Shown here: positions 39,039-60,067 of the stretch, piece after piece
Position numbering within the stretch: the stretch's first letter is position 1
Layout: each line of letters opens with the position of its first letter
Notes under the pieces: model-generated
Seen by the model: the letters and a program-made list of their open reading frames with translations, nothing else
Databases searched by the model: none
What the model was told of the DNA's origin: nothing
Position numbers and translations under genes: made by a program
From: Tidjanibacter sp.
GTDB taxonomy: Bacteria; Bacteroidota; Bacteroidia; Bacteroidales; Rikenellaceae
Direction of reading: 5' to 3'
NCBI GenBank assembly: GCA_017466345.1
Contig: JAFTUI010000001.1
Coordinates: 13,808 to 77,807 of the forward strand
DNA: 64,000 nucleotides

Positions 39039-39875
39039 TTATTCGTTACATTGTACGCCCTCAGGGTCAAAAATCGAGTTTAGCACATACGCCAAGCGAT
39101 AGCCACCAACAAGCAGTCTATTTTCCAACAGTGGCGAAAAGTCGAAGACAAACTGGTACGACAAGTTGGGATTTTCCTCGCCCAATGTCTCCACATAGTT
39201 GTAGATGCTTGCTGCTCCTTCTACGGTTTCGCAAAACCACTCCTCAAACGAGCCGACCGTAAGGTTCTGAGCAAACTCAGGGCAAACATTGCGGTCGAGC
39301 TGGTCGCGCCACTCGCTGTAACTCCACGAGCGAGCCGACTCCACAATCTTGCTATCCCACACCGAGTGGAGATTGGTGTTTCTGCCAAACCACCTGACCT
39401 TAGTGCGATTGCCACCCAAATCCGAGAGTCTGCCGGCGTGCATTGGGCAGTGCATATCGCCAACCATATGGACAATCATCTTCACATAGTCGCTACGCAT
39501 ACTATCGGTAAGATTCTCGTAGTTGTTTTGGAGTTGGTCGGTAAGCGTGGTGAGTGCTACCACAACATCGCCCTTCTCGTTTTTCTTCATTGTCTGGTAG
39601 GTTTCGCCCTTATCCACATTGGCATAGTGCCAAGTCTTGGTCTGGTTGTAGCCATTTTCCCAATAGGGCGAGTTCTGGATGTTGTCCATCCACGAGGAGT
39701 AGTAGACAATCGAGCGACCATCGAGGAGTTCGTTGAGTTTTGCTTTGGTCTTGTCCGTAAGGTGATTTTCGGCAATGGCTGCCACCACATCGTGTCCTGT
39801 GGGACCCCAACCGAAGGTAGTAAGTGAGTTAAGTAAAAATACACAACTCAATGCGGATAATAAAATCTTCTTCAT
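39039..39875 (-). CDS. S1/P1 nuclease family protein
   Basis: Signal peptide followed by WGPTGH; WHYANVD, HMVGDMHCPMH and NLHSVWD motifs. Confidence 0.93.
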   Translation of the reverse strand: MKKILLSALSCVFLLNSLTTFGWGPTGHDVVAAIAENHLTDKTKAKLNELLDGRSIVYYSSWMDNIQNSPYWENGYNQTKTWHYANVDKGETYQTMKKNEKGDVVVALTTLTDQLQNNYENLTDSMRSDYVKMIVHMVGDMHCPMHAGRLSDLGGNRTKVRWFGRNTNLHSVWDSKIVESARSWSYSEWRDQLDRNVCPEFAQNLTVGSFEEWFCETVEGAASIYNYVETLGEENPNLSYQFVFDFSPLLENRLLVGGYRLAYVLNSIFDPEGVQCNE

Positions 39876-43557: not shown

Positions 43558-43600
43558 AAAAAATATCTGGTAACCCCCGAAAAGGCTACCAGATTTTTTT
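43558..43600. terminator. Bidirectional terminator
   Basis: ATCTGGTA...TACCAGAT stem flanked by an A-run and a T-run between convergent operons. Confidence 0.65.
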
Positions 43601-43688: not shown

Positions 43689-44150
43689 TTAATTTCCGAG
43701 TATTTCTGATGGAATGGCAGAGCGAACATAGGTTAGGCGCTCCAAGGGGTCGTCTTTTGCTTCGAGGAGCATCTCTTCGGCTGTGAGGCTCTCGACAATG
43801 TAGCGGTGGTTCCATTCACCAGCACCGTGGTCGTACTCGCCACGCAGCACCGCCTTGCCCAACTCCTCATCAACATAGATGTTGTATCTGCCCGTAAGTG
43901 TGCGGGTGTAGTGGCTGTCGGTGTTTTGGTACATCGTGAAAGTGCGGTCGGAGCGCACAAAGTCAATGTAGACATCGAGCCCCTCAGGGAGTGTCGCATC
44001 GTTCCACAGCAAGAGCTTCCAACTGCCCGAAATGTTGTTGGGCGTAACCTCCAACTGTGTAGGTGTCTGAGGTTCGGTGGCGGGTTGCTCACAAGCGAAG
44101 CCCACGAACATCAAGGCTCCAACTACCAAAAGTTTAACAATCTTTTTCAT
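43689..44150 (-). CDS. Lipocalin-like lipoprotein
   Basis: Lipobox GFAC; NISGSWKL motif; last gene of the SusC/D locus. Confidence 0.8.
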   Translation of the reverse strand: MKKIVKLLVVGALMFVGFACEQPATEPQTPTQLEVTPNNISGSWKLLLWNDATLPEGLDVYIDFVRSDRTFTMYQNTDSHYTRTLTGRYNIYVDEELGKAVLRGEYDHGAGEWNHRYIVESLTAEEMLLEAKDDPLERLTYVRSAIPSEILGN

Positions 44151-44161
44151 CTTTCGTTACT

Positions 44162-44929
44162 TTATCTTTTTTCAATTTCTATCTCAATTTTTCTCTCGCG
44201 AGGTGGAGCATTCACGCCCCCCAAAAAGAGTATAGGCTTTACATCGGTGGCCTCTAATTCCACAACAAGCACCCCCTCTTCGCCACTCTGCAATACACTT
44301 GGCTCGGTGTAGGCGCTAATTCCTCCGAGTGAGAGTCTGCTATCGTGCAGAACCCTCAGAGGTTCACTGCCGCAGTTCCTGACTGCTATCTCCATCTTTC
44401 CGCCCTCTGCGGGGAGTGTCAGCGTGCGATTGCGCAGTCCTAACGTACCCATCAAGTGGGGGTAGAGTGAGGCACGGTCGGCGGAGAGTTCTACACTACC
44501 CACAATCTCCACAATGGCTGTGGGCTTACTCTCCGAGAGAGTGGTGTAGATGAAAATACGCTGTCGGATGCCACCTGTGTGTCCCTTTGGACGATACTCT
44601 ACCTCCAAAGTACCACTTGTGGCGCTCATACTCTTGCGTCTATCCCATTCGGCGACCAAACATCCGCAACTTGTCTTAATTTGCGTGATGGTTACCCTTT
44701 GTCCCTCGCTACTCCTCCAATGGAGCGTTGTGCGCCACGGTTCGGAGTCCTCGCTGATGGTGCCAAACGACACCCTCTCGCCCTGCTCAAAGAGCATCAC
44801 TCTCTTCCCGATAGTCGAAGGGTTGGCAGCCTCCTCAATGCGCTCTTGGGGTATGAGGCGTATCTGAGCTGTCGCTACGCCCAAAGTGCCCAATAGCAGA
44901 AAGAGTATGCCAACTATGCCCCTTCGCAT
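44162..44929 (-). CDS. DUF1573-like Ig-fold periplasmic protein
   Basis: Signal peptide; FGTISED...ITQIKTSCGC and GTLEVEYRP motifs; start moved to MRRGIV. Confidence 0.8.
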   Translation of the reverse strand: MRRGIVGILFLLLGTLGVATAQIRLIPQERIEEAANPSTIGKRVMLFEQGERVSFGTISEDSEPWRTTLHWRSSEGQRVTITQIKTSCGCLVAEWDRRKSMSATSGTLEVEYRPKGHTGGIRQRIFIYTTLSESKPTAIVEIVGSVELSADRASLYPHLMGTLGLRNRTLTLPAEGGKMEIAVRNCGSEPLRVLHDSRLSLGGISAYTEPSVLQSGEEGVLVVELEATDVKPILFLGGVNAPPRERKIEIEIEKR

Positions 44930-44951
44930 TCTTCCTTGCGGTTTTGAGTTT

Positions 44952-46961
44952 TTACATCCAACCGTTGGAGTTGGCACCTTTGCGAACGGTAATCACAAAG
45001 TCGTGCTGTTCGGTGCGACTGCCCTTGACTACGAGTTTTGCGCCCGTAGTGCCACTCTTCTTACCCTCGAAGAATAGTTTGCCATCGCTCTGGCGGCAGG
45101 TGGCAATCTCTTGGTTTTCAATTACAATCTCGAACTCATTATCCTCGCCCTCTGGGAAGAAACGTGCAGGATTGATGGCGTACTCTTCGCCCACGGGAAC
45201 ATAGATGTTGGGGAAGTGCATCGGAACGCCCACGCCCTCAATTTTGGCGAGCAGTGCCGCAGCATCCACCTGACCTGCGCCCATCTTATTTTTATAAAGA
45301 CTCAGGTCCATCTGCATAGGCTGCAAGGGACCAATGTCGGCAACATAGCGGCGGTATGACTTGGTGCCCACGCAGTATTCATCAATCGGACGAGCGGTAG
45401 AGTAGAGCGCCTCTTTGAGTTGGTCGGGAGTGAGGCTTATGGCCAACTCCGAAGCGTGCGAGATAGCGAGTGCCAAGACGCCTGAGATATGAGGACAAGC
45501 CATCGAGGTACCCTCCATCCAACCATAACCACTCTCGCTGACATTGGTGGGCAGGGTTGAGAGGATACATCCCACCTCTCCGTAGTTGTGATCATCGTCT
45601 TTATAGTCCCAATAGTAGTCTTGGTCGCCACCAGGGGCAGAGATAGTAGTACCCGTGCCATAGTTGGTATAGACTGCGGGGGTAAAGTCGGCAGCGGTGG
45701 CAGCAACCGAAACTGCAAAGTCCGCAGCACCTGGGTAACCAGCCGAAGGAGCACTCTCGTTGCCACCCGCAAAGACTACTACACCACCCGTAATAGGTCC
45801 GTTGGGCGAACCTGCATTGTGTACAAAGTAGTCGAGAGCTTCATATTCGAGCGGAGAGCCCATTTTCCACTCCTCTTCGGTGTGGAAGCCCTGCTCGCCC
45901 CAGTCGTACTCGTTGGCAGTACCCGAAACATAACCCCAGCTGCACTGCAAAACAACAGCACCATTGTCGGCAGCATATTTCATCGCCCTGGCAACATCCA
46001 AAACACTCGCGCCCACATTGCCGGAGAAAATCTGGCACGACATAATCTTCACGCCACCCTTTGTGCCATTGCCACCAGCAATAGAGGCAATGCCTACGCC
46101 ATTGTTGTTCACTGCCGATATAACACCTGCAACGTGGCTACCGTGTCCCGAATCGAGATAGTGGTTCCAAGTAATCACGCCACTCTTTCTGGCGAAGTTG
46201 TAGCCATTGATGTCGCCCTTGTAGCCATTGTTGTCGTTATCTTCGTGGGAGTGTGCAATCTCATCCTCATTTACCCAAATGTTGGCTTTCAGGTCGGGGT
46301 GCTCAACACATACACCCTCATCCAACACAGCGACAATTATATCCTCCGAGCCTGTCGAGAGCATCCAAGCACCCTCGGCGCGAACATCGGCACCAGCAAT
46401 ACATTTGCTTGCCAGATTTTCGCCCGTATTTATAAGGTTCCACTGGCTGCCCAGCAATGGGTCGTTCATAGCACCCACCGAGCCTCCCGCGCGAGTCAAA
46501 TCCTCCAATTTAAGGGGCGTAGCCTTACCATTATAGGCACGTTTTACGGTGCGGTTGAGGTCCACCCTCTGCACCTCGCCCAATGCAGACAACTTATCTG
46601 CCACACTCTCTACGCTCTCGCCCCTAAAACGCACCACATACCAAAGGTGCATACCGCTCTTGCGGGTAATCTCCTCGCGGCGTGAGTCAATTGGGAAGAC
46701 CCTCTCTAACTCGTATGCGCCCACAGCCTCCAACACCTCGTCAACCGAGGGAATGGTGCTGCGCGTAATATCCGTGCGAGTTTGCAACATACTCTCCACT
46801 TCGGGCGTGAATTTAATCATCAACTCGCCCTCCACAAAAGCCTTCTCTTCCTCCAACGGAGCCGAACTATCGGCCGTGGGAATGTCGTTAAGGCAGCCAA
46901 CAAGCAACAGCGTACTTGCAAGCGAAATGGTAAGAGGTAATATCTGTTTTGTAATCTTCAT
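44952..46961 (-). CDS. S8 subtilisin-family serine protease lipoprotein
   Basis: Lipobox LVGC; propeptide; catalytic triad motifs VAVLDEG, GHGSHVAG and GTSMACPH. Confidence 0.93.
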   Translation of the reverse strand: MKITKQILPLTISLASTLLLVGCLNDIPTADSSAPLEEEKAFVEGELMIKFTPEVESMLQTRTDITRSTIPSVDEVLEAVGAYELERVFPIDSRREEITRKSGMHLWYVVRFRGESVESVADKLSALGEVQRVDLNRTVKRAYNGKATPLKLEDLTRAGGSVGAMNDPLLGSQWNLINTGENLASKCIAGADVRAEGAWMLSTGSEDIIVAVLDEGVCVEHPDLKANIWVNEDEIAHSHEDNDNNGYKGDINGYNFARKSGVITWNHYLDSGHGSHVAGVISAVNNNGVGIASIAGGNGTKGGVKIMSCQIFSGNVGASVLDVARAMKYAADNGAVVLQCSWGYVSGTANEYDWGEQGFHTEEEWKMGSPLEYEALDYFVHNAGSPNGPITGGVVVFAGGNESAPSAGYPGAADFAVSVAATAADFTPAVYTNYGTGTTISAPGGDQDYYWDYKDDDHNYGEVGCILSTLPTNVSESGYGWMEGTSMACPHISGVLALAISHASELAISLTPDQLKEALYSTARPIDEYCVGTKSYRRYVADIGPLQPMQMDLSLYKNKMGAGQVDAAALLAKIEGVGVPMHFPNIYVPVGEEYAINPARFFPEGEDNEFEIVIENQEIATCRQSDGKLFFEGKKSGTTGAKLVVKGSRTEQHDFVITVRKGANSNGWM

Positions 46962-47028
46962 AAGTCTTTATTTATTAATCTTATAGATTGAAATAATATA
47001 CTTTATCCAAAACATTCACAGCAGACTG

Positions 47029-48669
47029 CTACTCCAAAGAGATGACAGGTTTTGTCTTTGTTGTGTAGAGGTCGTAATAGTAGTCCATATTCTCTGGCTC
47101 GTTGTCGAAGTGAGCACGCTCGCCACTCTGATTTTTACCCTCCTGAGGGAACACAAGGCTTGTGGGTATCCACCAATTGAGATTGGGATGATAGAGCAGC
47201 CAATCGGGGAGGTCGCCTGTCAGGCGGTTGTGATTGATACTGAAAAACCTTGTTTTGGTCATAATCTTCTTAATGCCCTCATCGACCAACTTACGAGGCA
47301 ATGTGTCGTTCGAGGCTGCCCAATCCTCTTCGCTATATACCTCAACCTCTGGATCGTCCTCGAATGTTGGGAGAGCACCTTGCAGGTAGTTTACAGAGAG
47401 GTTGAGGGTGTCGAGATTCCATTTGAGCAGATGCTCTGGGAACTTCTCCTCCTCAATGAAACCGCACAAGTCGGTGCGTGTGCTGTTGCTCAAATCGTAG
47501 ACCACCGATCGCTGGTTGGCGTTGAGTATGAGCGTGCGCAATTTGGGGAAGTTATCGGGATTGATAGCCTCCGGAACGGTCATAAAGTTATTACTACCCA
47601 AATTGAGGTATTCGAGATTCTCGAAGCGGAATTTATCCTTATCAAGTTCTGTTAAGCCGTGCGCACCAATGGTCAGGCGTTTGAGCTGTTGAAGGGTGAG
47701 AATATCTTCGCCAACACTCAGGCTTTTGAGGAAGGTGTTGGAGTTACCGAAGAAGAAGAGTTCTTCGGCAGCGGTCAGATACTTCACTTGGAAGGGGAGT
47801 TCCTCGTTTGTATTATAGATGAAGAACTCTGCATACCTCACACGACCCTTCTTGTCGGGGGTGTAGCCTTCGTGGTTCTCATTCCACAAAATTACTCCAT
47901 CCCAACGCTCCATAGGCACCGAAACGTCCCAACTCGAAAGGGTTTCGAGTGTTCGTTGTATGCTGACAAGTGCCACCGAGTCACCCTTACGGGTATTCTC
48001 CTCAATAGGCTCCGAAGCCTTCTGAATGACCTTCAAAACATCCTGACGCGCAAGGGTTATATCGCTACTCTGGGGCACAAAGCTAATCTCGGCGATGCGC
48101 TCCTCTGGCAGGGTGTTGATGTTCCACTCAAACTCCACATCGACCTTTCGGGGGCGAATACCCCTATTGAGGTCCAGATTGAACTTCTTGTTGTTTATCC
48201 AGCGAACACCATTAGGGATTACTACATCAAATGGAGTGTTTGCTACAACGCTGACGGTAAATCTGCGGTCTTTGTACGTCTTGTAGTTGTCGATTTTTAC
48301 CTCCTGCTTTTCGAGCTCTATGGAGTAGGGGAAACCCTCCTGCGTGACTTTGATGGTAAACCACTTGTTAGTCGTGAGGTTCTCAATCATAACCTCGTCA
48401 TAGCGCTCTGTGTGGTAGAGTGCAGAGTCGATGATAATCTCACAACTCGTGCTACCCTTACCATTGGCAGGCGATACGGTAATCCACGGTGCCTTCGTAG
48501 AGGCAATCCAGCTATCCTCGGAGTCGATACGGATTTTGCGTTTGCCACCCACAGCGTCAATTCTAATCTCGTTGGTGTCCGTAGCAAACTCCACAACGGG
48601 ATCCTCTACGCAACCGATGGTTAAGATGGCAACAAGTGCCATAGATATATGTCTGAATATATGTTTCAT
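47029..48669 (-). CDS. BACON plus leucine-rich-repeat lipoprotein
   Basis: Lipobox TIGC; BACON (WIAST..PWITVSP); LRR cap and repeats (LEYLNLGSN, LRTLILNAN, LNLSVNYLQG). Confidence 0.88.
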   Translation of the reverse strand: MKHIFRHISMALVAILTIGCVEDPVVEFATDTNEIRIDAVGGKRKIRIDSEDSWIASTKAPWITVSPANGKGSTSCEIIIDSALYHTERYDEVMIENLTTNKWFTIKVTQEGFPYSIELEKQEVKIDNYKTYKDRRFTVSVVANTPFDVVIPNGVRWINNKKFNLDLNRGIRPRKVDVEFEWNINTLPEERIAEISFVPQSSDITLARQDVLKVIQKASEPIEENTRKGDSVALVSIQRTLETLSSWDVSVPMERWDGVILWNENHEGYTPDKKGRVRYAEFFIYNTNEELPFQVKYLTAAEELFFFGNSNTFLKSLSVGEDILTLQQLKRLTIGAHGLTELDKDKFRFENLEYLNLGSNNFMTVPEAINPDNFPKLRTLILNANQRSVVYDLSNSTRTDLCGFIEEEKFPEHLLKWNLDTLNLSVNYLQGALPTFEDDPEVEVYSEEDWAASNDTLPRKLVDEGIKKIMTKTRFFSINHNRLTGDLPDWLLYHPNLNWWIPTSLVFPQEGKNQSGERAHFDNEPENMDYYYDLYTTKTKPVISLE

Positions 48670-48699
48670 AGCTAACTCTTATTTTGCCTGTTACTATTC

Positions 48700-51366
48700 T
48701 TAATCCATCATTGCGCTACATCCGACAATCTCTTGTGTCTTGTCGTAGATGAGTATGTAGGCGCCCACGCTCCACGCATAGCAGATACCCGAAGCATCCA
48801 AATAGATGTTGGGGTTGTCGCTAATGTCGAGGTAGTAGATGAGTGTCGAGATGGTGTCGTCAATCACTCCGAGATTGTTGGAGCCGAGATACAGGCCCCT
48901 AAGTCCTCGGTGGTTGCCGATACCCTGTGGCCACTCGCTAAGGCAACGACTACCGTTCTCATCGCGCTGACTACGCACTGCAAGCACAGTCAGTCCCGAA
49001 CTATCGAGAGGTTCGTAGGGGAACTCGCTGAATGAGTTGAACGAAACATCCACACCATAGAGGTAGGGGAGGTTTTGGGCATTCATATCCTTGGGGAATT
49101 TCGATATGTTGTTGTACGAAAGGTCCATAGAGGTCAGATTGACGCTGTTTTTACCCGTAAACGAGCCCTCGGGAACTTCGCTAATCTCGTTAGCCCTAAG
49201 GATGATATATGCCACCGTAGAACCACTCTCAATGAGTATCTTGGGATACTTCGTGAATTTGTTATGCGTGAGAGTGAAGGTCTCTACCTTGATACCCTTA
49301 TAGGTGCCGTCCTCTTCTCCCTCGAAACCATCTATCTGGTTGCCCGCAAAGCTTACCGATGCAATGGTAAATACACTGTTGGCATTGAAGATGTTGGGTA
49401 CTTTTGTCAGGCGGTTGTAGTTTACCGAGAAGGTCTCCACATCGTCATAACCGCAGAAATATCCATCTTCATCTTTGGGCAACTCGGTGATGAGGTTGTT
49501 GTCCAAATAGAGTTGCACAAACGACACACCTTTTCCCAGAGGGTGGAGTTTAGAGATTTTGTTGAAAGCCAAGTCGAGCAGTCCGAGTTTCTTCATATTC
49601 TTGAACGAGGCGGGGAGCTCTTCGAGGTTGTTCTGGCGGCAGTAGAGGATCTGTATCTTCTCGCTGCTGGGACCTGTTGCCAAGCCATCAAGACCTTTGT
49701 AAATCTCCTCGGCACTCCACTGAGCATTGTTCGAGAGGTTGAGCGATATGAGCTCAGGCATCTCGGTAATAGCCATTGGGAATTCGGTCATACGAGAGCA
49801 GTTGTAAATCTCCAAGTCGGTCAGCGAAGTGAGGTTCTTAATCGTGCTGGGAATGCTCTCTATGGTGCTGTTTGCAATGTAGAGGTATTCGAGGTTAGTA
49901 AGGTTGCCAATCTCATCGGGCAGACTTACCAGACCGTTGCATATTGCACCGTGCGAAGAGTCCATAAGCGATATGTTGCGTTGCACACCGCTCTTGGGGT
50001 CGATAATCTCGCTCTCACTCATATTCTCATAGAGTTTCATCTCTGGGATAGAGATGCCATTCTCTGCCAAAGCCCTTGCACAAGGCTCCGATATTTGAAT
50101 GGGAGTGTGGATGGTGCGCAACCACTCTCCGTGCAGAGCCATACGATTGCGGCTACGCTCCGAGAGACTCTTGTTGTGGTCGAGGGTGGGGTCGTAGTAG
50201 GTAAAATTGTTGTCGTTGTGAGTACCCAAGTAGAGCTCCACCAACTCCGTGAGCCTGCCGATAGAGGGCGAGAGTTCGCCCCTGATGCCAAAGCCGCTCA
50301 AATCGAGGAACGCCACACGACCATTGGCGTGGAGTTTGACACCCGGCTGGTCGCCCCACAGGTCTACATCCTTATTGAAGTCCCAATTGCAACCCTGTGG
50401 GTGCTCCTCGCCAACGTAGTACCATTCCTCGCCATTCAGGCTCTCCCAAATATCCCTAAGGGCGTAGTAGTCCTGAATGTACTTGTCGGTCGCGTAGAGA
50501 GTGATAGCCACCTTCGCCTCTGTAATTTCGTTGTCGCGAATTACAAAGGGGCTCTCGGCGGGATTATTCTTGGTTTCGAGTATGACATTGTTCGAGTCGT
50601 ATGTTTCGTATCTCGATACGACATACTCTCCCGTGGGAAGCCAAACGAGGGTATCGCACTTGATAGACGAGGTCTTGTAGCCATCATCGTCTATGCCATT
50701 ATCCTCGAAATGCATATCGAACTCGCAAGGAATATCTTTTATAGTTATGGTGGTGTTGGTGCTCTTGCGCTTGATGGTGATATTTACCTTGTCAATCTCA
50801 TCGAATGTGTATTCACGATTGGCAGCACGAGTTCCCTCCTCGTTGTTAAAACCGCTCATATCTTTGAAGAGCGAGAATTGCACCTTACCACGATTTACAA
50901 CATTGACTGCGATGTCGTGGACACTCACGCCTCCGTTGCAAATGCTAATGTTGCGATCCCCCTCAGGGTCGCCGAGGTAAATCTCTCTATCCTCTTTGTC
51001 GTAGAGCGTAAAAGTGATGATTTGGTAGTCGCCTGCCAAGAGTTTCAGCTTCTCGCTGCGCAAGCCCCACTCGGCAGCATCTCCTTCGCCACTACTCAGG
51101 CGCAGAGTTTGCGCAATTGTGGATGTGCCATAGCGCAAAGTCACTTTGACTTTGTGAGCCTCCGAGAGCCACTCCAACTCATTTTTTTCGAGGTTGGAAG
51201 CCTTCGTGGTGCTCTCTGATTGAGTGTCGGCGACCTTCTTGTAGAGTTTGAACTGAACGTAGCCGTAGCCATCGTTAATTCCAATCTCTTCGGGGCTGGC
51301 ACACGAAGCCATAATTGCCACAATGAGTGCCATCGCCACCCCTCTTATCGTTATTCCAAGTTGCAT
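48700..51366 (-). CDS. DUF4458-like plus leucine-rich-repeat lipoprotein
   Basis: Lipobox MASC; two Ig-like N-terminal repeats; plant-type LRR cap (WGDQPGV...GRVAFLDLSGFGIRGELSPSIGRL); more than 10 LRRs. Confidence 0.9.
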   Translation of the reverse strand: MQLGITIRGVAMALIVAIMASCASPEEIGINDGYGYVQFKLYKKVADTQSESTTKASNLEKNELEWLSEAHKVKVTLRYGTSTIAQTLRLSSGEGDAAEWGLRSEKLKLLAGDYQIITFTLYDKEDREIYLGDPEGDRNISICNGGVSVHDIAVNVVNRGKVQFSLFKDMSGFNNEEGTRAANREYTFDEIDKVNITIKRKSTNTTITIKDIPCEFDMHFEDNGIDDDGYKTSSIKCDTLVWLPTGEYVVSRYETYDSNNVILETKNNPAESPFVIRDNEITEAKVAITLYATDKYIQDYYALRDIWESLNGEEWYYVGEEHPQGCNWDFNKDVDLWGDQPGVKLHANGRVAFLDLSGFGIRGELSPSIGRLTELVELYLGTHNDNNFTYYDPTLDHNKSLSERSRNRMALHGEWLRTIHTPIQISEPCARALAENGISIPEMKLYENMSESEIIDPKSGVQRNISLMDSSHGAICNGLVSLPDEIGNLTNLEYLYIANSTIESIPSTIKNLTSLTDLEIYNCSRMTEFPMAITEMPELISLNLSNNAQWSAEEIYKGLDGLATGPSSEKIQILYCRQNNLEELPASFKNMKKLGLLDLAFNKISKLHPLGKGVSFVQLYLDNNLITELPKDEDGYFCGYDDVETFSVNYNRLTKVPNIFNANSVFTIASVSFAGNQIDGFEGEEDGTYKGIKVETFTLTHNKFTKYPKILIESGSTVAYIILRANEISEVPEGSFTGKNSVNLTSMDLSYNNISKFPKDMNAQNLPYLYGVDVSFNSFSEFPYEPLDSSGLTVLAVRSQRDENGSRCLSEWPQGIGNHRGLRGLYLGSNNLGVIDDTISTLIYYLDISDNPNIYLDASGICYAWSVGAYILIYDKTQEIVGCSAMMD

Positions 51367-51393
51367 AATAGTATGGATTTGTAAGCGTGAGGA

Positions 51394-53412
51394 TTAGAGT
51401 TGATAAACCACGGTTAATTGTACTGCCTGAACATATCCCTCGCCATAGAGTGTGAGATTTGAGCGTACCTCTGTCACACCTGCCTCTACTTCTGGTAACT
51501 CTGCGGTGTCGATGTGGATTGTAACCCTACCCGTTCCCTCGGTAGTGTAGAACCACGATGCATAGGGATAGGATATGAGATAGTTTGGCACAATCAGAGT
51601 TGCCTCCTGACAATTCTCGTTTAGGGTAAGCATATACTGCAAAGTGCCCACAAAAGCCATCTCGATTGAGTATTCAGCCATATCTTTGGTAATCTCTTTG
51701 AGGTTTGCACCAAGTGCATCATAATCCTTGTCGTTTGCAAAGACTACCGAGCCTTCGGGACGGTCTATGGGTGTGGTGTAGTTGGGATCGAGGATGAAAT
51801 AGATGAATGCAAAAGCCTCATCTTTGTTGAATGCCTCTTCGCTTTCGTAGAAGAAGATGAAAGCCTCGTTTTCGCCACCATCGCCAGCGTAGGGGTTTGT
51901 GTAGGTATACCCCTCAATAGTCTCTCCCAAACGGCTCTTAATCTTATAGCCGTTCTCCAAATCTTTGTGTTCCTCGCTTGGCTCTATGGTAAGCCAGCAA
52001 GTGTCGTTGTCGTATACAGACGACTCATTGAAACCATAAATCTTGTAATTGGCGATAGGTTTGGCAAAAATCAAATCGTCGCCCGAATTATTGCCCTGGT
52101 AGGTGAGTTTATAGGCATAGGGAACTTGGCTCCAAGCACCAACGTAGGGCCACGAGCCACTTGTTAACTTCTCGAATTTTGAGTTGTAGGCAGCCATAAT
52201 CTCCTCGTCATTGACAATAATAGCTTCGTTAGACTCAATAATCTTCATTACCTGTTGGGTGATGGTGCATACGATGTAGTCGTTGTAGTTGGTGGCACCA
52301 GCCGTTACAGCCGATACGGGGAGTGCGGCAATTGCACCCTCGCGCTGTGAAGTGGTGGTGTTGGCACTAACGTCAAACATAAAGGAACGCTCCCACACGC
52401 CATAGTCGCCAGCCTCCTCGGGAATATCCTCCGTGATGGTATACGTCATCCAGTCTGCACCCTCGGTGGTGTAGGTGCCATCGGCATTCTTATTGAGTAG
52501 AATGAGCATAGCGCCACGGGGCGAACTGATGCGTGCGTTGGCAAAGTCAGTATAAGAATCCGAGGAAGTCTGGAAATACTCGCCTTCGGCATTGAAGATG
52601 AGTGACTCGGGAAGAGTTACCTCGCAAATATCCTTACAACCCTCCATCGTGGTAGGATAGGAGCCGATAGCCTCAAAATTGGACTCTGTGCTATTGGTAA
52701 GGTAGATAAGACCAAATTCGATGTCACAGGCGACATCTTCGAGTGGCAACTGCTCTCTATTAACCCTCAGGAAGAGTTCTGTACGACCTGCGGTTCCTTC
52801 TGTTGCGTTGAGGTTGAGCCAAGCAGGAGCATCGGGCGAGAGATACCAATCAAAGTTAGCCTCTATCACAATCCTCTGCATCCACTGTGCGTTGCTCCAT
52901 ACCCAGTCGAGTCTTTCGGCAGGGGTGGAGGAGTAGATGTAGTTGTCATCAGCATCGGTTGAGAACATAATATCGCCGGTCTCCTCATCGGTGTAGTTTT
53001 CAGCAACATACATTACCAAGGTGTGCTCCTTACCGCCACGAGTAAGTTCGGCAACGACCTTTGTTTCGTTGCCCATAGTCATCTCAATGGCGCACACCCT
53101 AACAGTGTTGAACTCCTCAATATCGGATACGCCAACCGTAATGGTGTGAGTACCTGCCTCGCCATTCATATCCTGGCGTTCAACCGCACCGATAATAAAT
53201 TTGAAGTATGTGGCAACTTCATCGGGAATTTGCAGTTTCCACGACATATTGGCAGTGAAGGAGAACTCATACTCCTCGCCAGCCTCCACCGAGGCAGTTA
53301 TCTTCTCAGGGAAAATAGGGGTTACCTCCTCTGGTACCTCGTTACAACCAACAAAGGTCATTGCAGCACTCGCCGCAAGTGCCATCAACATATTGATTAT
53401 ACCTCTTTTCAT
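51394..53412 (-). CDS. Large hypothetical surface lipoprotein (DUF5003-like, tentative)
   Basis: Lipobox FVGC followed by acidic residues; BACON-like segments. Confidence 0.75.
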   Translation of the reverse strand: MKRGIINMLMALAASAAMTFVGCNEVPEEVTPIFPEKITASVEAGEEYEFSFTANMSWKLQIPDEVATYFKFIIGAVERQDMNGEAGTHTITVGVSDIEEFNTVRVCAIEMTMGNETKVVAELTRGGKEHTLVMYVAENYTDEETGDIMFSTDADDNYIYSSTPAERLDWVWSNAQWMQRIVIEANFDWYLSPDAPAWLNLNATEGTAGRTELFLRVNREQLPLEDVACDIEFGLIYLTNSTESNFEAIGSYPTTMEGCKDICEVTLPESLIFNAEGEYFQTSSDSYTDFANARISSPRGAMLILLNKNADGTYTTEGADWMTYTITEDIPEEAGDYGVWERSFMFDVSANTTTSQREGAIAALPVSAVTAGATNYNDYIVCTITQQVMKIIESNEAIIVNDEEIMAAYNSKFEKLTSGSWPYVGAWSQVPYAYKLTYQGNNSGDDLIFAKPIANYKIYGFNESSVYDNDTCWLTIEPSEEHKDLENGYKIKSRLGETIEGYTYTNPYAGDGGENEAFIFFYESEEAFNKDEAFAFIYFILDPNYTTPIDRPEGSVVFANDKDYDALGANLKEITKDMAEYSIEMAFVGTLQYMLTLNENCQEATLIVPNYLISYPYASWFYTTEGTGRVTIHIDTAELPEVEAGVTEVRSNLTLYGEGYVQAVQLTVVYQL

Positions 53413-53445
53413 ACTCATATCTTTTTTTTGTTTTTATTTTTCACT

Positions 53446-54354
53446 CTATTGCAATTGTTTGCGGAGGTCATCTGCCTCCTCTTTGGTTATCCACTCTACG
53501 ATGTTGTAGAAGTGACCTACGGTGCCGACAGCCTCGCCCAAATCCTCAACATAGACGTGTGCCCATAGCACCACAAAGTTCTCACAAGTGTTGAAGTAGG
53601 ATGCGTAGTAGGGACTATGGCTAATGAGTATCCTGTTGTCGCCGTGGAACATACCAAGCACCGAACCTTCGTCACTCATCACTTGCTCCTCCATCCTCAC
53701 GAGCGGATTCTCAGGGTCGCCAGCCTGCAACTTAATGTTCAGGTCGTAGCCATCATAGAAGCAGTCCCTGAGGATGATAGTATTCTTCTCGGTGGGGTGC
53801 TGCTCTGTTTCGATGATGCGCTGATAGGAGACATTGTCGCCAGGGTAGTTCTGCAATATCATCGAGCTTACGATAGCATAGCCCGTATAGTTGTTAATAT
53901 CGAATGGGCAGTATTTGTACATCACAACTTTGCTCTGTGTGCCATCCTCATAGAGGTCGTTCCACTCCATCTCTTCGGGCACCACAAGGTGGAGGATAAA
54001 ACCGAGTGAGTCGGCAGCTGCGATGTTGTCGTACATACCCTTAACCCTCACTTCGCCCGCAAGTTCGCCCGCAGGGATAGTTACACTATTAGACAGCAGG
54101 CGGTAGTGTAGCCCTTCGATGGCATTGCTACCCTTGTCGATGACCTCCACGCCAAATGTGCGGTCGCTCTTGCTCTTGGCGGTAGCCGACACCATAACGC
54201 TGAAATAGTCTTGGTCTTGCTCCACAAGGAAGTACTGCTCCTGCTCGGCAAACATAACATAGTTGGTGTCTTGGAGTGTTATATAACGCTCCTGGCAGCT
54301 CACCAAAGCCCACAACGCAAGTATTACGGTTATATATATAGGTGTGTGTTTCAT
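53446..54354 (-). CDS. SusC/D-associated lipoprotein (DUF4984-like, tentative)
   Basis: Lipobox LVSC; GSNAIEGLHY...VTIPAGE Calx/Ig-like pattern; start moved to MKHTPI. Confidence 0.78.
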   Translation of the reverse strand: MKHTPIYITVILALWALVSCQERYITLQDTNYVMFAEQEQYFLVEQDQDYFSVMVSATAKSKSDRTFGVEVIDKGSNAIEGLHYRLLSNSVTIPAGELAGEVRVKGMYDNIAAADSLGFILHLVVPEEMEWNDLYEDGTQSKVVMYKYCPFDINNYTGYAIVSSMILQNYPGDNVSYQRIIETEQHPTEKNTIILRDCFYDGYDLNIKLQAGDPENPLVRMEEQVMSDEGSVLGMFHGDNRILISHSPYYASYFNTCENFVVLWAHVYVEDLGEAVGTVGHFYNIVEWITKEEADDLRKQLQ

Positions 54355-54379
54355 ATCTTGGTTGTTTTTCGGTTGTTTC

Positions 54380-55915
54380 TTATTTGTTACTCTCGTTTGG
54401 TGCGACTTCCGAGCCCGGGGCTTCCAATTCGTGTTGTGGAATGGGCCATACAAGGCGTGGATCGTCTGCCTTAATACTCAGACTGCTACCCTCGGCAAGC
54501 GAACTCTTCTGAGGAGTGCGGGTAAAGCCTTCGCCATTCCTATAAAGCGAGCCCCAACGCTTGATGTCCTGCAATCGGTGCCCCTCCATATAGAGTTCCC
54601 TAACCCTTTCGTTGGCAATCTGCTCAATGTAGTTCTCAGCAGTGAGCGAAATGGCTCCACCGCTCTGCAAGCGACTCTCGCGCAGTGTGCTAATATCTTT
54701 CGAGGCTTTCGAGAAGTCGGGATTTTGTTTGCGGCAGTAAGCCTCGGCACGAATCAGATACTGCTCTGCCAAGCGGAATGGCTTGGGCATCGAAACGTGG
54801 TAGATGTAGTTGCTAATAAAGTCTTGGTTGCCATAGTATTTTACAAGCAAGGGCCACTGTAAGCCGTGGTCGTAGCCTGTGGATAGGGTGGCAAAATAAC
54901 TGTTATAGCGCAAATCGCCCGAAGTGTAGAGGTCCAAAACCCACTGAGCAGGCACATAGTCGGGGTAGTAGTAGGTGTAGTCGTTGTTGAAATTGAGGAA
55001 TACTTGACCGAGTGCTCCTCCCATTGAGGTCGGTGTGAAGCCTACTCGCCAGATACACTCGGTAGCAAGGTCGTAGTTCCACATATAGTCGAAGAAGGAC
55101 ATCTCGGCGGTGTACATTTGATTGGTTGCCGAGAGAGAGTACATTCCCTCCTCGTGGTCAATAACTGCCGAGGAGTGCTCGATAGCCTCATCCCATTCCT
55201 GCATATAGAGTGCAACTCTTGCGTGGAGGGCGTGAGCCACAGCATTGGTCATATAGTAACTGCTGTACACGTCATAGTCGGGGTCCAGTATCTCCTCTGC
55301 TTTTTCGAGGTCCTCAACAACAAACTTATAGGAGTCTTTCAATGAGGCTCTAATGCTCTTTTCGGGGGTGGAGTAACCCTTGCGCAACACCACGCCAAGT
55401 TCGTTGTCGGCAGTTGCGCGGTCGTAAGCCTTGCAGTAGAGTTTCAGCAACTCCGAATAGCAAAGTGCGCGAATGGCATACACCTCGCCGGTGTATTGCT
55501 CCAAGATGGTAATCCTCTCATCGTCTGTCTGTTTGGCGATGATGGAGTCTATACGTTCGAGGTAGAAGTTACAATTACTGATTATGCTATACAGCGAGGC
55601 ATAGACAGCCTCCACCTCGCTATTGGTGGAGCGTATGTCCCACAGCCAATGCTGACCATAGGTGTTCGAATAGCCATCAACGGCATATACGAGGTCGGCT
55701 TGGATGTCGGGTAAAAGGGTTAGTGCACCACTCCATAGAGCACTGCTCTTCATCATCGAATAGATACCCGTCACGGTCTGCTCGGCATCGTTATAGGACT
55801 GCATAGCCTCATCTATGGGAATTGCCGACTGAGGCATCTTGTCCAAACACGAGGTGGTAGACACCATCAACGAGAGTGCTACCACAAAATATATCATCTT
55901 TTTCATCATTTTCAT
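54380..55915 (-). CDS. SusD/RagB family lipoprotein
   Basis: Lipobox TTSC; GEVYAIRALCY, LHARVALY, FRLAEQYLIRAEA and ERVRELYMEGHR motifs. Confidence 0.95.
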   Translation of the reverse strand: MKMMKKMIYFVVALSLMVSTTSCLDKMPQSAIPIDEAMQSYNDAEQTVTGIYSMMKSSALWSGALTLLPDIQADLVYAVDGYSNTYGQHWLWDIRSTNSEVEAVYASLYSIISNCNFYLERIDSIIAKQTDDERITILEQYTGEVYAIRALCYSELLKLYCKAYDRATADNELGVVLRKGYSTPEKSIRASLKDSYKFVVEDLEKAEEILDPDYDVYSSYYMTNAVAHALHARVALYMQEWDEAIEHSSAVIDHEEGMYSLSATNQMYTAEMSFFDYMWNYDLATECIWRVGFTPTSMGGALGQVFLNFNNDYTYYYPDYVPAQWVLDLYTSGDLRYNSYFATLSTGYDHGLQWPLLVKYYGNQDFISNYIYHVSMPKPFRLAEQYLIRAEAYCRKQNPDFSKASKDISTLRESRLQSGGAISLTAENYIEQIANERVRELYMEGHRLQDIKRWGSLYRNGEGFTRTPQKSSLAEGSSLSIKADDPRLVWPIPQHELEAPGSEVAPNESNK

Positions 55916-55929
55916 ACTCGCAAGCGGTG

Positions 55930-58878
55930 TTAGAAGGTTACATCAAGACCAAAAGTGTATTGGCGTGCCATAGGATATTGAGCCGCATAGATGTTGGTTG
56001 TACCCTCAGGGTCAAGACCAGAGAAGTGTGTAAAGGTCAACAGGTTCTGAGCCTGAACATATAGCCTCACACCACGAATAGCATTCTGCCCTGCAAGCCA
56101 CTCCGAGGGGAGCGAGTAGGAGAGCATTACGTTTTTGAGCCTCAGGAATGATGCATCCTCCAAGAGTCGTGAGTCGAATTCGGTATATTCGCCATAGCGG
56201 GGAATGTCGGTAACATCGCCGGGCTTCTGCCAGCATCCCAAAAGGCGGCGCGATTGGTTGTAGGTTGCAAAGCGACCATTCGACTCATCGAAGTAGCGGT
56301 CGTTATTGAGCATCCACCTATCAGCCACCCAGCTGAACTGTGTGCTGAGTGACAAGCCTTTGTAGGTCAGTGCTGTGCCAAAGCCACCCTGCCAGGGAGC
56401 AATGTAGGTCTTGCCGACCAAGACTTTGTCCTCATCGCGCAACTCGGTCGTGAGGTTGCCCTCCTTGTCGTACCACAGGGCATCGCCATTGGCGGGGTTT
56501 ACGCCCGCATAGCGGTTGATATAGAATTCGCCCAGAGGATGACCAACAACAAGTTTGGTGTTGGTGCCCGAGCGTTCATACTCCGTCACTCCATTGTAGA
56601 GTTCGGTAATCTCGTTGTGGTTGTATGCCACATTGGCATTTACGGTCCACAAGAAGTCATCGGTGGCAACGAGTGTAGCGTTGAGGTTGAGCTCTGCACC
56701 AGCATTTACCATCTCGCCCACGTTGTCCCAATAGTAGCCAAAGCCACTTGTGGAGTAGGGGGTGGGTACTTGCATAAGCATATCGCTCGTGACCTTATAG
56801 TAGAGTTCGAAATCCACATTGAGCCTATTCCAAAAGCCTGCGTGCAGGGCGAAGTTGGTTGTCCAGGGTTTTTCCCATCCAAGATTTTCGTTACCAGGCT
56901 GAGCTAAGCCTACGCCCGCATCGCCCACATAGTCGGCACCACCGCCAACAAGGGCAAGGTGCTCGTAGTTGGGAATAGAGGAGTTACCACTCGTACCCGT
57001 AGAGAGTGATACTTGTGCGGTTGTGAGCCAATCGGTGTAGGGTAGGATGAAGTCCTCCTTCATCATATCCCACATCAGACCCATAGACCAGAAAGCACCC
57101 CAGCGGTTGGACTTACCAAACCTCGAAGAACCGTCTAAACGGAAGGCTGCCTCGGCATAGAGTCGGCGGTCGTAGTTATACTCGCCACGCGAGAAGAACG
57201 AGAGGAAACCGTAATCGGAGTCGGTCGTGTCATCCCACGAAGTAGCCCTTGTACCCGTAGAGATACTTGTCAGGCGGTCGTTGTTCTGACCTTCCACCAG
57301 CACGCTAAACGCCTCGTAGTGGTAGTCTACACCCTCTTGACCAAGCAGGAAAGTGAAATTGTGGTCGCCATCTATGTCGAAAGTGTAGTTTGCAGTGTTG
57401 GTAATCGTAAGGCTGTAACCATCGGTCGAAGAACGCGATGCAGAGCCGTTGTTTTGGTTGGGAGCGTAACTTGGATAGGACTTGCCATAGCCTGTGGTGT
57501 GTGAGTAATCCACGCCAAACTGAGAACGCAACACAAGACCCTCAATGGGTTTAGCCTCTGCAAATATCGTGGAGAGGAGTTTGTACTTTTGATAATGCAC
57601 AGGGTTTGCTTCGAGCCATTCGAGAGGGTTCTGACCATTACCCTTCCACGAACCGTCCTCGATAGAGGCAATAGAACCGTCCTCTCGGCGGGGATTCCAA
57701 TAGGGAAGCATAAAACGTGCTGCCGAGATGGGGGTTACGAGTGTATAAGCACCCTCATCTGCCTGCCGTATCTTCTGATAGTTGAGCATTGTGTTGGTGC
57801 CCAATGTGAGCCACTCTGCCGCCTTGCGCTGCACGTTCGTTCGGAGCGAAAAGCGCTCGAAGTCGCTACCCACTGCCGTACCCTGCTGGTTGTAGTAGCC
57901 ACCCGAAAGGTAGTAGTTGGTCTTGTCATCTGCACCCGACACCGAAACCTCGTAGTTCTGCAATGGAGCCGAAGAGTTGAAGACCTCGTTCATCCAATTC
58001 ACGTTTGTGCGCTCCAAAAGAGCATAGTTTTGCCCCTCTGTCATTCCTGTCTGCTTCTCGTAGGCGATGCGTTCGGGAGTAGTCATCAAATCCCACTTGC
58101 TGTCATCTGCTTGCGAAAAGCCGAGTTGAGTGCGGAACTCAATGCGTGGACGGTCGGCAATTCTACCGCGTTTGGTAGTAATCACGATAACGCCATTTGC
58201 CGCCCTTGCACCGTATATAGAGGTCGAAGAGGCGTCTTTGAGCACCGAGAGTGACTCGATGTCCGCAGGGTTGATTGTATTAAAATCGCTTGCCGAGATG
58301 GGTACTCCATCGAGGATGTAGAGTGGGGCAGTGCCTGAGTTGATAGAGTTGGTACCACGAATAGTCATCGTTGTCGATGCACTTGGCTCGCCAGAGTTGG
58401 AGAGTACCGACAGACCCGCAACTTGTCCTTGCAACGCCTGGTCAAAAGCGGCTGTTGGAGTATTCTCCACCTTCTCTGCCTTGACGGTCGAAACCGAGCC
58501 GGCAACGGTACCTTTCTTACGCACAGCATAGGCAATAACCACGACATCATCGAGCACTTCGCTTTCGCTCTGCATCTTCACATCGTGCGCAACCTCTGCC
58601 GAGCCGGTGGGAATTTTCCACGCAACCTCCTTGTATCCCATATAGGAGTAGGTTAGAGTGGTGCCGGCTGCGGCTTTGATGGTGTAGGTGCCATCTACTG
58701 CTGTTGTTGTACCACTAAATGTTTCGGTCAGGATGGTGACACCAATCAGAGGCTCTCCCCCTGCGGCATCCACCACCTTACCACTAACTGTTACCTGCTG
58801 ACCCTGCGCATAGGAGGGTAAGCCGCACAACACCGCAAGGAGTGTTGTAATTAAAAGTTTGGTCAGATTTGTTTTCAT
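55930..58878 (-). CDS. SusC/RagA TonB-dependent transporter
   Basis: Carboxypeptidase-regulatory-like N-terminus; LKDASSTSIYGARAANGVIVITTKRG signature; C-terminal Phe; start moved to MKTNLT. Confidence 0.97.
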   Translation of the reverse strand: MKTNLTKLLITTLLAVLCGLPSYAQGQQVTVSGKVVDAAGGEPLIGVTILTETFSGTTTAVDGTYTIKAAAGTTLTYSYMGYKEVAWKIPTGSAEVAHDVKMQSESEVLDDVVVIAYAVRKKGTVAGSVSTVKAEKVENTPTAAFDQALQGQVAGLSVLSNSGEPSASTTMTIRGTNSINSGTAPLYILDGVPISASDFNTINPADIESLSVLKDASSTSIYGARAANGVIVITTKRGRIADRPRIEFRTQLGFSQADDSKWDLMTTPERIAYEKQTGMTEGQNYALLERTNVNWMNEVFNSSAPLQNYEVSVSGADDKTNYYLSGGYYNQQGTAVGSDFERFSLRTNVQRKAAEWLTLGTNTMLNYQKIRQADEGAYTLVTPISAARFMLPYWNPRREDGSIASIEDGSWKGNGQNPLEWLEANPVHYQKYKLLSTIFAEAKPIEGLVLRSQFGVDYSHTTGYGKSYPSYAPNQNNGSASRSSTDGYSLTITNTANYTFDIDGDHNFTFLLGQEGVDYHYEAFSVLVEGQNNDRLTSISTGTRATSWDDTTDSDYGFLSFFSRGEYNYDRRLYAEAAFRLDGSSRFGKSNRWGAFWSMGLMWDMMKEDFILPYTDWLTTAQVSLSTGTSGNSSIPNYEHLALVGGGADYVGDAGVGLAQPGNENLGWEKPWTTNFALHAGFWNRLNVDFELYYKVTSDMLMQVPTPYSTSGFGYYWDNVGEMVNAGAELNLNATLVATDDFLWTVNANVAYNHNEITELYNGVTEYERSGTNTKLVVGHPLGEFYINRYAGVNPANGDALWYDKEGNLTTELRDEDKVLVGKTYIAPWQGGFGTALTYKGLSLSTQFSWVADRWMLNNDRYFDESNGRFATYNQSRRLLGCWQKPGDVTDIPRYGEYTEFDSRLLEDASFLRLKNVMLSYSLPSEWLAGQNAIRGVRLYVQAQNLLTFTHFSGLDPEGTTNIYAAQYPMARQYTFGLDVTF

Positions 58879-59023
58879 AACGCGCAAAAATATAATTTTT
58901 ATCTGAACAACATACCCCTTATACCTCTTTTTTATTAACAATTTATTAACAAATTATTGTCGAAGGGTGGTAGCACAGAACTGCTGCGAGAAATAACTTC
59001 CTCTTTCTTAACACTCCTCAATA

Positions 59024-59062
59024 ATTTTCATTTTCCATTTTCAATTCAAATTTGTACTTTTG
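59024..59062 (+). promoter_or_regulatory. Esterase promoter with an upstream heptamer array
   Basis: TACTTTTG at 59055-59062; TTTC at 59032-59035, 19 nt upstream. Confidence 0.65.
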
Positions 59063-59083
59063 TGTCACTAAAAATTTTATGCA

Positions 59084-60067
59084 ATGAAGAAGCAGATTTT
59101 ATTGTGCGCTATGGCATTGTTGCTTGTAGCGGAGAGTGTTGTGGGCCAGGTGGTTGAGAAGAAGACCTACACCTACGCACATCGTGGCGAGAGGGCTATG
59201 TACCTCGATATTTATTCCACCAACCAAAGTGTTGAGCCTTGTCTTTTGTACATCTTTGGCGGTGCTTTCCTTGCCGGACAGCGTGCCGAAGAGGAGGTTG
59301 TGGAGGTCTATGAGTATTTCGCCCAAAGGGGGTGGAAAGTGGTGGCTATCGACTACCGCTTGGGGCTGTTGCCACTGCTCGAAGAGCCTGAGGTTGAGCG
59401 CGGTTTGCTCGATTTTAGAGCTATGCTCATCAACGCCATAGATATTGCAACGGAGGACTTGGTGGAGGCTACGGCATACCTTGTGAGCAATGCCGAAACA
59501 CTCGGCATAGACCCCGCGAAAATCGTGACACTTGGATCGAGTGCTGGTGCTATCACTGCCCTGCAAGCCGAGTGGTCCATCTGCAACTCAAAACCTGTGG
59601 CAAGCCTTCTGCCTGCCGACTTCAACTATGCCGGTGTGGTCGCTATGGCGGGAGCAATTTGCGCTAAGGGTAGGAAATTGGAGTGGCAACAAGCACCTTG
59701 TCCTATGTTGCTCTTCCACGGCGATGCGGACAGGAATGTGCCCTATGATAAACAATCGCTCTTTGGTGTGAGCCTCTTTGGTTCGGAGGTTATTGCCGAG
59801 TCGCTCCGCGAGTTGGAGTCGCCCTATTGGTTCTATGATGCCGAGAATATGGACCACAACCTCTCGTGGCGACCTATGTACTTCCTGCGCCCCGAAATTG
59901 AGATGTTCGCCCAGAGGATGGTTTTTGGTGGCGAACGCCTGCTCATCCACCAGCGTGTGAATGATACTTCGCTCCCAGAGGCTGAGGATAACTACGGACT
60001 CGGGGACTATATAGAGGCAAACTTCGCCCCCGACAAACCTCACGGCGTGGAGGCAGCCACTTATTAG
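59084..60067 (+). CDS. Secreted alpha/beta-hydrolase (carboxylesterase-like)
   Basis: Signal peptide; FGGAF oxyanion motif, GSSAG nucleophile elbow, FHGDAD and a downstream His. Confidence 0.88.
   Translation: MKKQILLCAMALLLVAESVVGQVVEKKTYTYAHRGERAMYLDIYSTNQSVEPCLLYIFGGAFLAGQRAEEEVVEVYEYFAQRGWKVVAIDYRLGLLPLLEEPEVERGLLDFRAMLINAIDIATEDLVEATAYLVSNAETLGIDPAKIVTLGSSAGAITALQAEWSICNSKPVASLLPADFNYAGVVAMAGAICAKGRKLEWQQAPCPMLLFHGDADRNVPYDKQSLFGVSLFGSEVIAESLRELESPYWFYDAENMDHNLSWRPMYFLRPEIEMFAQRMVFGGERLLIHQRVNDTSLPEAEDNYGLGDYIEANFAPDKPHGVEAATY

Follow-up and report, generated by a model that had tools for sequence, protein, structure and literature searches.

What does a SusC/SusD transport locus import when it encodes no enzyme acting on carbohydrates? 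This question is raised by nine genes at positions 43689-58878 of a 64,000-nt stretch of DNA (called here the window) from Tidjanibacter sp., a gut bacterium of the Rikenellaceae with a small genome (GCA_017466345.1, contig JAFTUI010000001.1, positions 13,808-77,807). Because its transporter resembles the peptide importer RagAB of Porphyromonas gingivalis and a surface protease is the one enzyme that it encodes, the locus most likely harvests protein rather than sugar, as far as sequence comparison can tell. We put at about 0.5 the probability that it constitutes a protein-foraging utilisome.

The nine open reading frames (ORFs) are all called on the minus strand. From the susC gene to the lipocalin-like gene at the other end, the intergenic gaps calculated from the coordinates are 14, 25, 27, 27, 30, 67, 22 and 11 nt, which is exactly the range of 11-67 nt given for nine co-oriented genes in an earlier note written from this sequence alone. 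Domain assignment of the products with Pfam and NCBIfam identified, in this order, SusC, SusD, a DUF4984 protein, a 674-aa lipoprotein (position 4), an 888-aa leucine-rich repeat (LRR) lipoprotein, a BACON+LRR lipoprotein, an S8 subtilase, a DUF1573 protein and a lipocalin-like protein. A lipobox cysteine followed by acidic residues, which is the signature for surface export of Bacteroidota lipoproteins, is conserved in exactly seven of these products (SusD, the DUF4984 and 674-aa proteins, both LRR proteins, the subtilase and the lipocalin-like protein), SusC and the DUF1573 protein having ordinary signal peptides. With neighbouring susC-like and susD-like genes in one operon, the locus is Sus-like in the operational sense. 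It has neither the co-encoded carbohydrate-active enzymes (CAZymes) nor the glycan-responsive regulator by which a glycan polysaccharide utilisation locus (PUL) is functionally defined. No domain of a glycoside hydrolase (GH), lyase, sulfatase or regulator was detected with Pfam and NCBIfam in the nine genes or in their immediate flanks, no polysaccharide lyase or carbohydrate esterase was detected in the nine genes, and no hybrid two-component system, extracytoplasmic function (ECF)/anti-sigma or SusR-type regulator is encoded among the nine genes. The seven lipoboxes and the lack of glycoside hydrolase, lyase, sulfatase and regulator claimed in the earlier note were thus both found again. 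For comparison we used a set of related loci taken from the best 80 of 412 species genomes that encode a relative of the 888-aa LRR protein.

The first gene of the operon (55930-58878) encodes a 982-aa TonB-dependent transporter of the SusC/RagA family (TIGR04056, 783 bits; Pfam) composed of an N-terminal CarboxypepD_reg-like domain, a plug and a barrel, without the STN signalling domain. Its closest solved structure is RagA (6sli_B, E=1.9e-177, 596 bits), with about 39.5% identity over 885 aligned residues, whereas the solved glycan SusC proteins scored 392, 310 and 255 bits, ButC 206 bits and BT2264 113 bits. By these pairwise scores SusC appears to be specifically related to RagA and far closer to it than to any solved glycan SusC; RagA/SusC identities were described as mostly 10-20% in the RagAB paper. 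The adjacent gene (54380-55915) encodes a 511-aa lid lipoprotein of the SusD/RagB family (PF07980, 1.2e-19; PF14322) with a conserved lipobox (TTSC followed by LDK). When compared with the Protein Data Bank (PDB), SusD matched 3kez first (1e-24) and RagB second (2e-19). In the 69 related loci where it was compared, SusC is 65-97% identical, with a dN/dS of 0.05-0.08, and SusD is 57-96% identical across related loci.

The likeness to RagAB (6SLI) covers nearly the full length of SusC, the match of SusD to RagB (E=2e-19) ranking behind that to 3kez. Neither locus has CAZymes. The division of labour that we propose would be the same in both systems, a surface protease producing the peptides and the SusC/SusD pair (SusCD) importing them. 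The window locus differs in that it co-encodes a serine subtilase and five accessory lipoproteins. A second comparison is offered by ButCD and other peptidase-linked SusCD loci of Bacteroides fragilis (8YPT/8YPU), which are likewise CAZyme-free, stand beside a peptidase gene and have been proposed to transport polypeptides. These differ more, ButC being far more distant from the window SusC, its neighbour being a zinc metalloprotease, and LRR lipoproteins being absent.

Two further observations concern the transporter genes. The window SusC is the best RagA homologue of its own genome, and the next paralogue (495 bits to RagA, 38% identical to the window SusC) belongs to a second RagA-like locus (G000:C22:45736-51338) that consists of SusC, SusD and one 340-aa lipoprotein without Pfam match and lies directly upstream of tig, an oxidoreductase gene, clpP and clpX. 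Compared with the closest relative (locus L003), SusC and SusD (54380-58878) are 97% and 96% identical, with dS values of 0.25 and 0.14, whereas dS lies at 0.6-1.2 for the other seven genes of the operon (43689-54354). By these values the operon would be a mosaic produced by recombination, with a later exchange of the transporter pair than of the rest.

The sole predicted enzyme of the operon is the 669-aa S8 subtilase lipoprotein (44952-46961; PF00082, 1.5e-36; PF16361, 2.5e-29), which comprises a Peptidase_S8_N domain, the catalytic domain and a C-terminal domain. Asp214, His273, Ser486 and the oxyanion residue Asn401, arranged in the subtilisin order, are invariant in 81/81 orthologues, so that the D/H/S triad described as intact in the window is intact throughout, and the enzyme is predicted to be catalytically competent. 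Its dN/dS is 0.11. The closest solved structures are deseasin MCP-01, AprV2 and BprV, which are extracellular subtilases of broad specificity.

S8 genes also occur in this genus outside such loci. Each of the 14 sampled genomes with the LRR locus has exactly one S8 homologue, and 9 of the 12 without it carry 2-10 paralogous S8 lipoprotein genes in tandem arrays. The paralogues are 800-980 aa long and 35-44% identical; eight stand in a row in G138 (C9:24094-48815), and further tandem arrays are found in G258, G363, G374, G391, G406 and G412. The LRR locus and the arrays look mutually exclusive, which may reflect two sub-lineages, the array region of G138 having 62% GC compared with about 50% in the window. 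We considered these arrays as SusCD-linked equivalents of the locus and rejected them, since the G138 array has neither adjacent SusCD nor lipocalin-like genes.

The gene following the subtilase gene (44162-44929) encodes the DUF1573 protein (PF07610, 6e-17). A CxC motif (C104 and C106 in the numbering of a longer ORF starting with GTG from 44977) is invariant in 78/78 orthologues, most of which have no lipobox, and hints at a redox or metal-binding role. This protein also shows weak similarity to the NCBIfam (seleno)protein family OS_HP2.

Regarding the accessory lipoproteins, the third gene (53446-54354), in the SusE/F-like position of an accessory binder, encodes a 302-aa surface lipoprotein with a DUF4984 domain (PF16372, 8e-48) and a weak DUF4843 match. 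Its AlphaFold2 (AF2) model (predicted local distance difference test, pLDDT, 86.8; predicted template modelling score, pTM, 0.72) consists of two beta-sandwich domains, and the top Foldseek matches are the Bacteroides PUL accessory lipoproteins 3n91, 3nqk, 4qni, 3p02 and 4dqa, of which 4qni is BT3507, an 'auxiliary nutrient binding protein'; a weaker resemblance is to non-catalytic domains of GH18 endoglycosidase proteins. The 674-aa lipoprotein at position 4 (51394-53418), with a weak BACON match, is modelled as an all-beta string of immunoglobulin (Ig)-like beta-sandwiches (pLDDT 86.6), with the Ig chains of hydin, cadherin, KIT and PrgB as top Foldseek matches and no enzyme fold among them. 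For both proteins, called unknown lipoproteins in the earlier note, a beta-sandwich fold without catalytic function is thus predicted with good confidence, and the possibility considered in the earlier note that one of them is a CAZyme finds no support in the predicted folds. The position-4 protein is the fastest-evolving member of the operon, its orthologues being 22-71% identical and 506-856 aa long, with a dN/dS of 0.15-0.21. Directly behind the lipobox it nevertheless keeps a short N-terminal segment (P-x-F-P-E/T followed by an Ig-like domain), as might be seen in a protein that docks by a conserved end and varies at its distal one.

The 888-aa lipoprotein (48700-51366) carries two DUF4458 domains, LRR_10 and a long LRR solenoid. 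It matches the crystal structure 4ECN at 41% identity over residues 31-886 of 888 (E=1.2e-157) and 4ECO at 7e-117, and is 54-84% identical in the 80 loci. The next gene (47029-48669) encodes the 546-aa BACON+LRR lipoprotein (LRR_8, 6e-7; BACON, 0.0023), which is present in 80/80 loci and whose Bacteroides orthologue has a clearer BACON match (4e-7) together with LRR. Matches to the NCBIfam internalin and XopL models lie far below the cut-offs. The last gene (43689-44150) encodes a small surface lipoprotein of 153 aa, weakly lipocalin-like (PF13648, Lipocalin_4, 0.0027), which is 36-83% identical in 76 loci and whose Bacteroides orthologue is annotated as Lipocalin_4.

How widely is this gene set kept together? 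Relatives of the 888-aa LRR protein number more than 1,900 in the protein collection, under the names Tidjanibacter, Alistipes or Rikenellaceae, and the best 80 genomes are all Rikenellaceae metagenome-assembled genomes, mostly from ruminant guts. In each of the 80 loci the nine genes have the same order and strand wherever the contig is long enough, the subtilase and the large LRR protein together being 52-84% identical. This order recurs in about 70 Rikenellaceae species, and it is also kept in Bacteroides and in two further Bacteroidales families (L103, L104), hence in four families. This conservation of order and strand places the clustering far beyond chance, and the nine genes are a conserved module; the synteny check proposed in the earlier note had a clear outcome. 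Pairwise comparison with three close relatives gave a dN/dS of 0.05-0.21 for all nine genes, which indicates that all are kept functional by purifying selection. The 15-kb operon is retained in a host genome of only 1.82 Mb (95.6% complete) with about eight SusC paralogues. Of 201 Rikenellaceae genomes sampled, 48, from 3 of 31 genera, have the DUF4458 domain, always in single copy. It was also found in 9 of 301 Bacteroidales genomes, and not outside the Bacteroidales in a sample of 401 genomes of the phylum.

The Bacteroides counterpart connects the locus with earlier work. The sequence of 4ECN is 100% identical to one Bacteroides protein cluster and, from this identity and the gene order, is presumably BT_0210 of Bacteroides thetaiotaomicron. 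A protein 86% identical to this 4ECN-type protein (P0158) lies in a Bacteroides locus of nine genes encoding SusC (980 aa), SusD (511 aa), DUF4843/DUF4984 (302 aa), DUF5003 (526 aa), DUF4458-LRR (905 aa), BACON (660 aa), Peptidase_S8 (695 aa), DUF1573 (271 aa) and Lipocalin_4 (158 aa) proteins. Pfam and tblastn showed that Bacteroides loci L100 and L101 carry the same nine families, likewise in this order and all on one strand, as expected for a locus of the BT0206-14 type. The window proteins are, from SusC to the lipocalin-like protein, 56, 52, 43, 29, 37, 31, 44, 28 and 39% identical to their positional counterparts in tblastn. All nine are detectably orthologous, and on gene content and order we regard the window locus as the Rikenellaceae orthologue of BT0206-14, the very region to which the earlier note had pointed (around BT0206-BT0214). 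The two differ at position 4, where a DUF5003 protein of 526 aa in Bacteroides replaces the 674-aa Ig chain of the window, the two being alignable only over the N-terminal ~200 residues; they also differ in their family, genome (1.8 Mb here) and flanking genes.

BT0206-14 was described as one unit without linked regulator (PMC2709373), as in the window, and is counted in the literature among the 88 PULs of B. thetaiotaomicron. Martens et al. observed that it was induced, together with the capsule locus CPS2, in a mutant of the anti-sigma factor BT3992, and that this induction occurred only if the mucin O-glycan-responsive Sus-like system BT3983-88 was expressed (PMC2709373). In a further paper BT0207-08 are given as SusD and DUF4984, and BT0211-13 as BACON, S8 and DUF1573 (PMC10434189). 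We found no paper assigning a substrate to BT0206-14, and no relevant literature on DUF4458, DUF4984, PF14660, BT0210 or a 'protein utilization locus'. The locus type, catalogued since 2009 and with a structural-genomics crystal structure for one component, is therefore uncharacterised in function rather than unseen, as the earlier note had supposed. What is new here is the specific similarity of SusC to RagA, the non-enzymatic folds of two lipoproteins, the synteny of the nine genes in four families and the existence of a sister architecture that has no protease.

This sister architecture (called here class B) is represented by four loci of two other Bacteroidales families (L105:10818-19943, L106:1983-16251, L107:6487-19978 and L108:2697-17245). 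They start, as in the window, with genes for SusC, SusD, DUF4984, Ig-chain, DUF4458-LRR and BACON-LRR proteins, SusC being 55-56% identical to that of the window. The place of the S8/DUF1573/lipocalin triplet is then taken by a third LRR lipoprotein, of the DUF4458+LRR type and 459-563 aa long, and by a small lipoprotein. In none of the four was a protease, a lipocalin-like gene or any other recognisable enzyme found. Since the triplet can be missing, the constant core consists of the RagA-like SusCD, the DUF4984 and Ig-chain proteins and the LRR lipoproteins, and the triplet is, by comparison of these architectures, a modular add-on. Class-B loci would rely on proteases encoded elsewhere, as RagAB does on gingipains, or import an intact small ligand. 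One genome (G086) carries two class-B loci on a single contig.

How could the nine products work together? In the model that we favour, a protein or glycoprotein would be retained on the outside of the cell by the LRR, Ig-chain and DUF4984 lipoproteins. With the lipocalin-like protein, these (DUF4984, Ig-chain and the two LRR proteins) make five surface lipoproteins that lack catalytic folds and would serve as substrate binders or scaffold, and the lipid-anchored subtilase would cut the captured protein to oligopeptides. These could then enter by the pedal-bin mechanism through the RagAB-like SusCD, the presumed TonB-dependent import core, and the DUF1573 protein may be active in the periplasm or on the inner side of the outer membrane, possibly in a redox-related role. 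We infer the physical assembly of the components, the binding of protein by the LRR proteins, the peptidic nature of the cargo and the kind of substrate. The operon logic is that of the glycan utilisomes (SusC2D2, for example levan BT1760-63), namely a transporter, a lid, a binder in the SusE/F position and a lipoprotein endo-enzyme, all with the surface-export signatures. By contrast, the window encodes a protease instead of a glycoside hydrolase, has LRR and Ig-chain binders and no hybrid two-component or ECF regulator, and its complex is a putative one.

Several points weigh against a protein-foraging utilisome. The top match of SusD in the PDB is the uncharacterised SusD 3kez, not RagB. 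The BACON domains and the likeness of the DUF4984 fold to glycan-PUL accessories equally fit a glycan or glycoprotein ligand. If the Peptidase_S8_N domain is a propeptide that is cleaved off, the mature protease would lose its lipid anchor. A BT_0212 mutant, tried only for cleavage of EspB, a translocon protein of E. coli, had no effect (PMC6282197). Finally, proteolysis is not intrinsic to the uptake machine, given the protease-less class-B loci. The model of capture, cleavage and import set out in the earlier note is still the best reading and is supported in part: no CAZyme is detectable, and the link to peptide import has become stronger through the ~39.5% identity of SusC and RagA, whereas an obligatory protease is not borne out by natural variants without the triplet. 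These same variants touch on the dispensability of the protease, which that note had named as a point on which its model could fail.

Other explanations share part of this evidence. We consider it rather unlikely that the target is specifically a glycoprotein or glycopeptide (for instance the core of mucin, some other glycoprotein of the host or a hydroxyproline-rich one from plants), with glycan bound by the BACON, DUF4984 and Ig-chain proteins, the backbone cut by the subtilase, glycopeptides imported and deglycosylation encoded elsewhere; this would refine the protein model rather than oppose it. The presence of BACON domains in two products speaks for a glycosylated target, as do the resemblance of the DUF4984 model to Bacteroides PUL accessories and, more weakly, to non-catalytic GH18 domains, and the dependence of BT0206-14 induction on BT3983-88. 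BACON domains, however, are not known to bind carbohydrate reliably, about 90 loci show no CAZyme within or consistently beside them, and SusC is RagA-like and unlike the solved glycan SusC proteins. The last two points also make it most improbable that this is a glycan PUL of the usual kind, with enzymes that escape recognition or are encoded at other sites, despite the SusC/SusD architecture, the BACON domains and the listing of BT0206-14 among PULs, for no conserved CAZyme neighbour and no catalytic fold other than S8 was detected by Pfam, NCBIfam or fold prediction.

The remaining explanations give protease and transporter another purpose. Adhesion, recognition or import of an intact ligand rather than bulk nutrition, with for example a host surface, another microbe or a small secreted protein as partner, appears improbable to us; SusCD would then take in a small protein or signal undegraded, in the way that ButCD imports a ubiquitin-like toxin, and the protease, where present, would only modify the partner. 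In its favour are the class-B loci, with three LRR lipoproteins each and not a single enzyme, and the fair conservation of the LRR protein (54-84%), as for a defined partner; SusCD complexes can also carry whole small proteins (PMC11467351). The comparison with adhesins has a basis, too, in BspA and other LRR proteins on the surface of oral Bacteroidota, which act as adhesins. But the protease triplet is tightly linked to the operon across four families with invariant catalytic residues, the closest characterised relative of the transporter is a nutritional peptide importer, and the locus is retained in a reduced genome of 1.8 Mb. Cofactor piracy, in which the LRR proteins capture a carrier, the subtilase degrades it, the lipocalin-like protein takes over the ligand (haem, corrinoid, lipid or vitamin) and SusCD imports it, has in our view a slim chance of being correct. 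Lipocalin folds do bind small hydrophobic molecules and the lipocalin-like lipoprotein is conserved at the end of the operon. The Bacteroides locus adjoins fur and rubrerythrin genes, and an iron study lists genes of the locus among those lower in iron depletion. We judged this iron link (the Fur neighbour and the iron-stimulon table) weak, since the Fur neighbourhood is not conserved in Rikenellaceae and the iron-dependent changes, with p values of 0.08-0.57, are not significant. Furthermore, class-B loci have no lipocalin-like gene, and no known haem- or B12-binding family was detected in the nine products with Pfam and NCBIfam.

The protein-foraging reading can be taken one step further, and we do so tentatively. 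The locus could be the first dedicated 'protein utilisation locus', with LRR solenoids as protein-specific counterparts of surface glycan-binding proteins and the subtilase as the endo-acting enzyme, both recruited by a RagAB-like SusCD core, a proteolytic utilisome selecting a particular conserved host or dietary (glyco)protein. Class B would then stand for the uptake of intact small proteins or for proteases acting in trans.

The ends of the operon and its surroundings were also inspected. An intrinsic-terminator-like hairpin (43565-43594, minus strand), with a 13-bp stem followed by a T run, lies about 95 nt past the last gene and is the probable end of the operon. At the other end, the intergenic region upstream of susC (58879-59083) is common to a divergent esterase gene. 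It contains a candidate Bacteroidota -7-like motif of the TAnnTTTG type, TATTTTTG, at 58885-58892 (minus strand), 6 nt ahead of the susC ATG, and a generic sigma-70 promoter scan gave nothing better than shuffled sequence. With TATTTTTG so near the ATG, either the mRNA is near-leaderless, or the promoter or start codon lies elsewhere. The downstream flank is of a housekeeping nature (miaA, rho, S1/P1 nuclease), and upstream an alpha/beta-hydrolase gene is followed by pyrC/K/D. A few kb downstream, past rho and miaA, lie genes for a 496-aa BACON-domain protein (37211-38701, minus strand) and the S1/P1 nuclease (39039-39875, minus strand). When all flanking ORFs of 66 loci were clustered, no neighbour and no flanking regulator was conserved in more than 15 loci. 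The alpha/beta-hydrolase (59084-60067, plus strand), divergent from susC, matches BD-FAE (feruloyl/acetyl-xylan esterase-like). We asked whether it might serve the locus as a hidden carbohydrate esterase and rejected this, as only the 15-19 closest relatives have it beside the locus and it is absent in Bacteroides and the other families.

When gut Bacteroidales, notably Alistipes and its relatives, ferment protein, they influence the levels of ammonia, branched-chain fatty acids and further health-relevant metabolites, yet knowledge of their capture and uptake of protein hardly extends beyond P. gingivalis. The module described here is single-copy, occurs in about one quarter of the sampled Rikenellaceae and in common human Bacteroides, with at least 412 species genomes overall, and has an orthologous locus in B. 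thetaiotaomicron, a model organism amenable to genetics. Should the module prove to be a utilisome that captures protein, the utilisome concept would extend from glycans to proteins and bacterial LRR proteins would gain a defined nutritional role.

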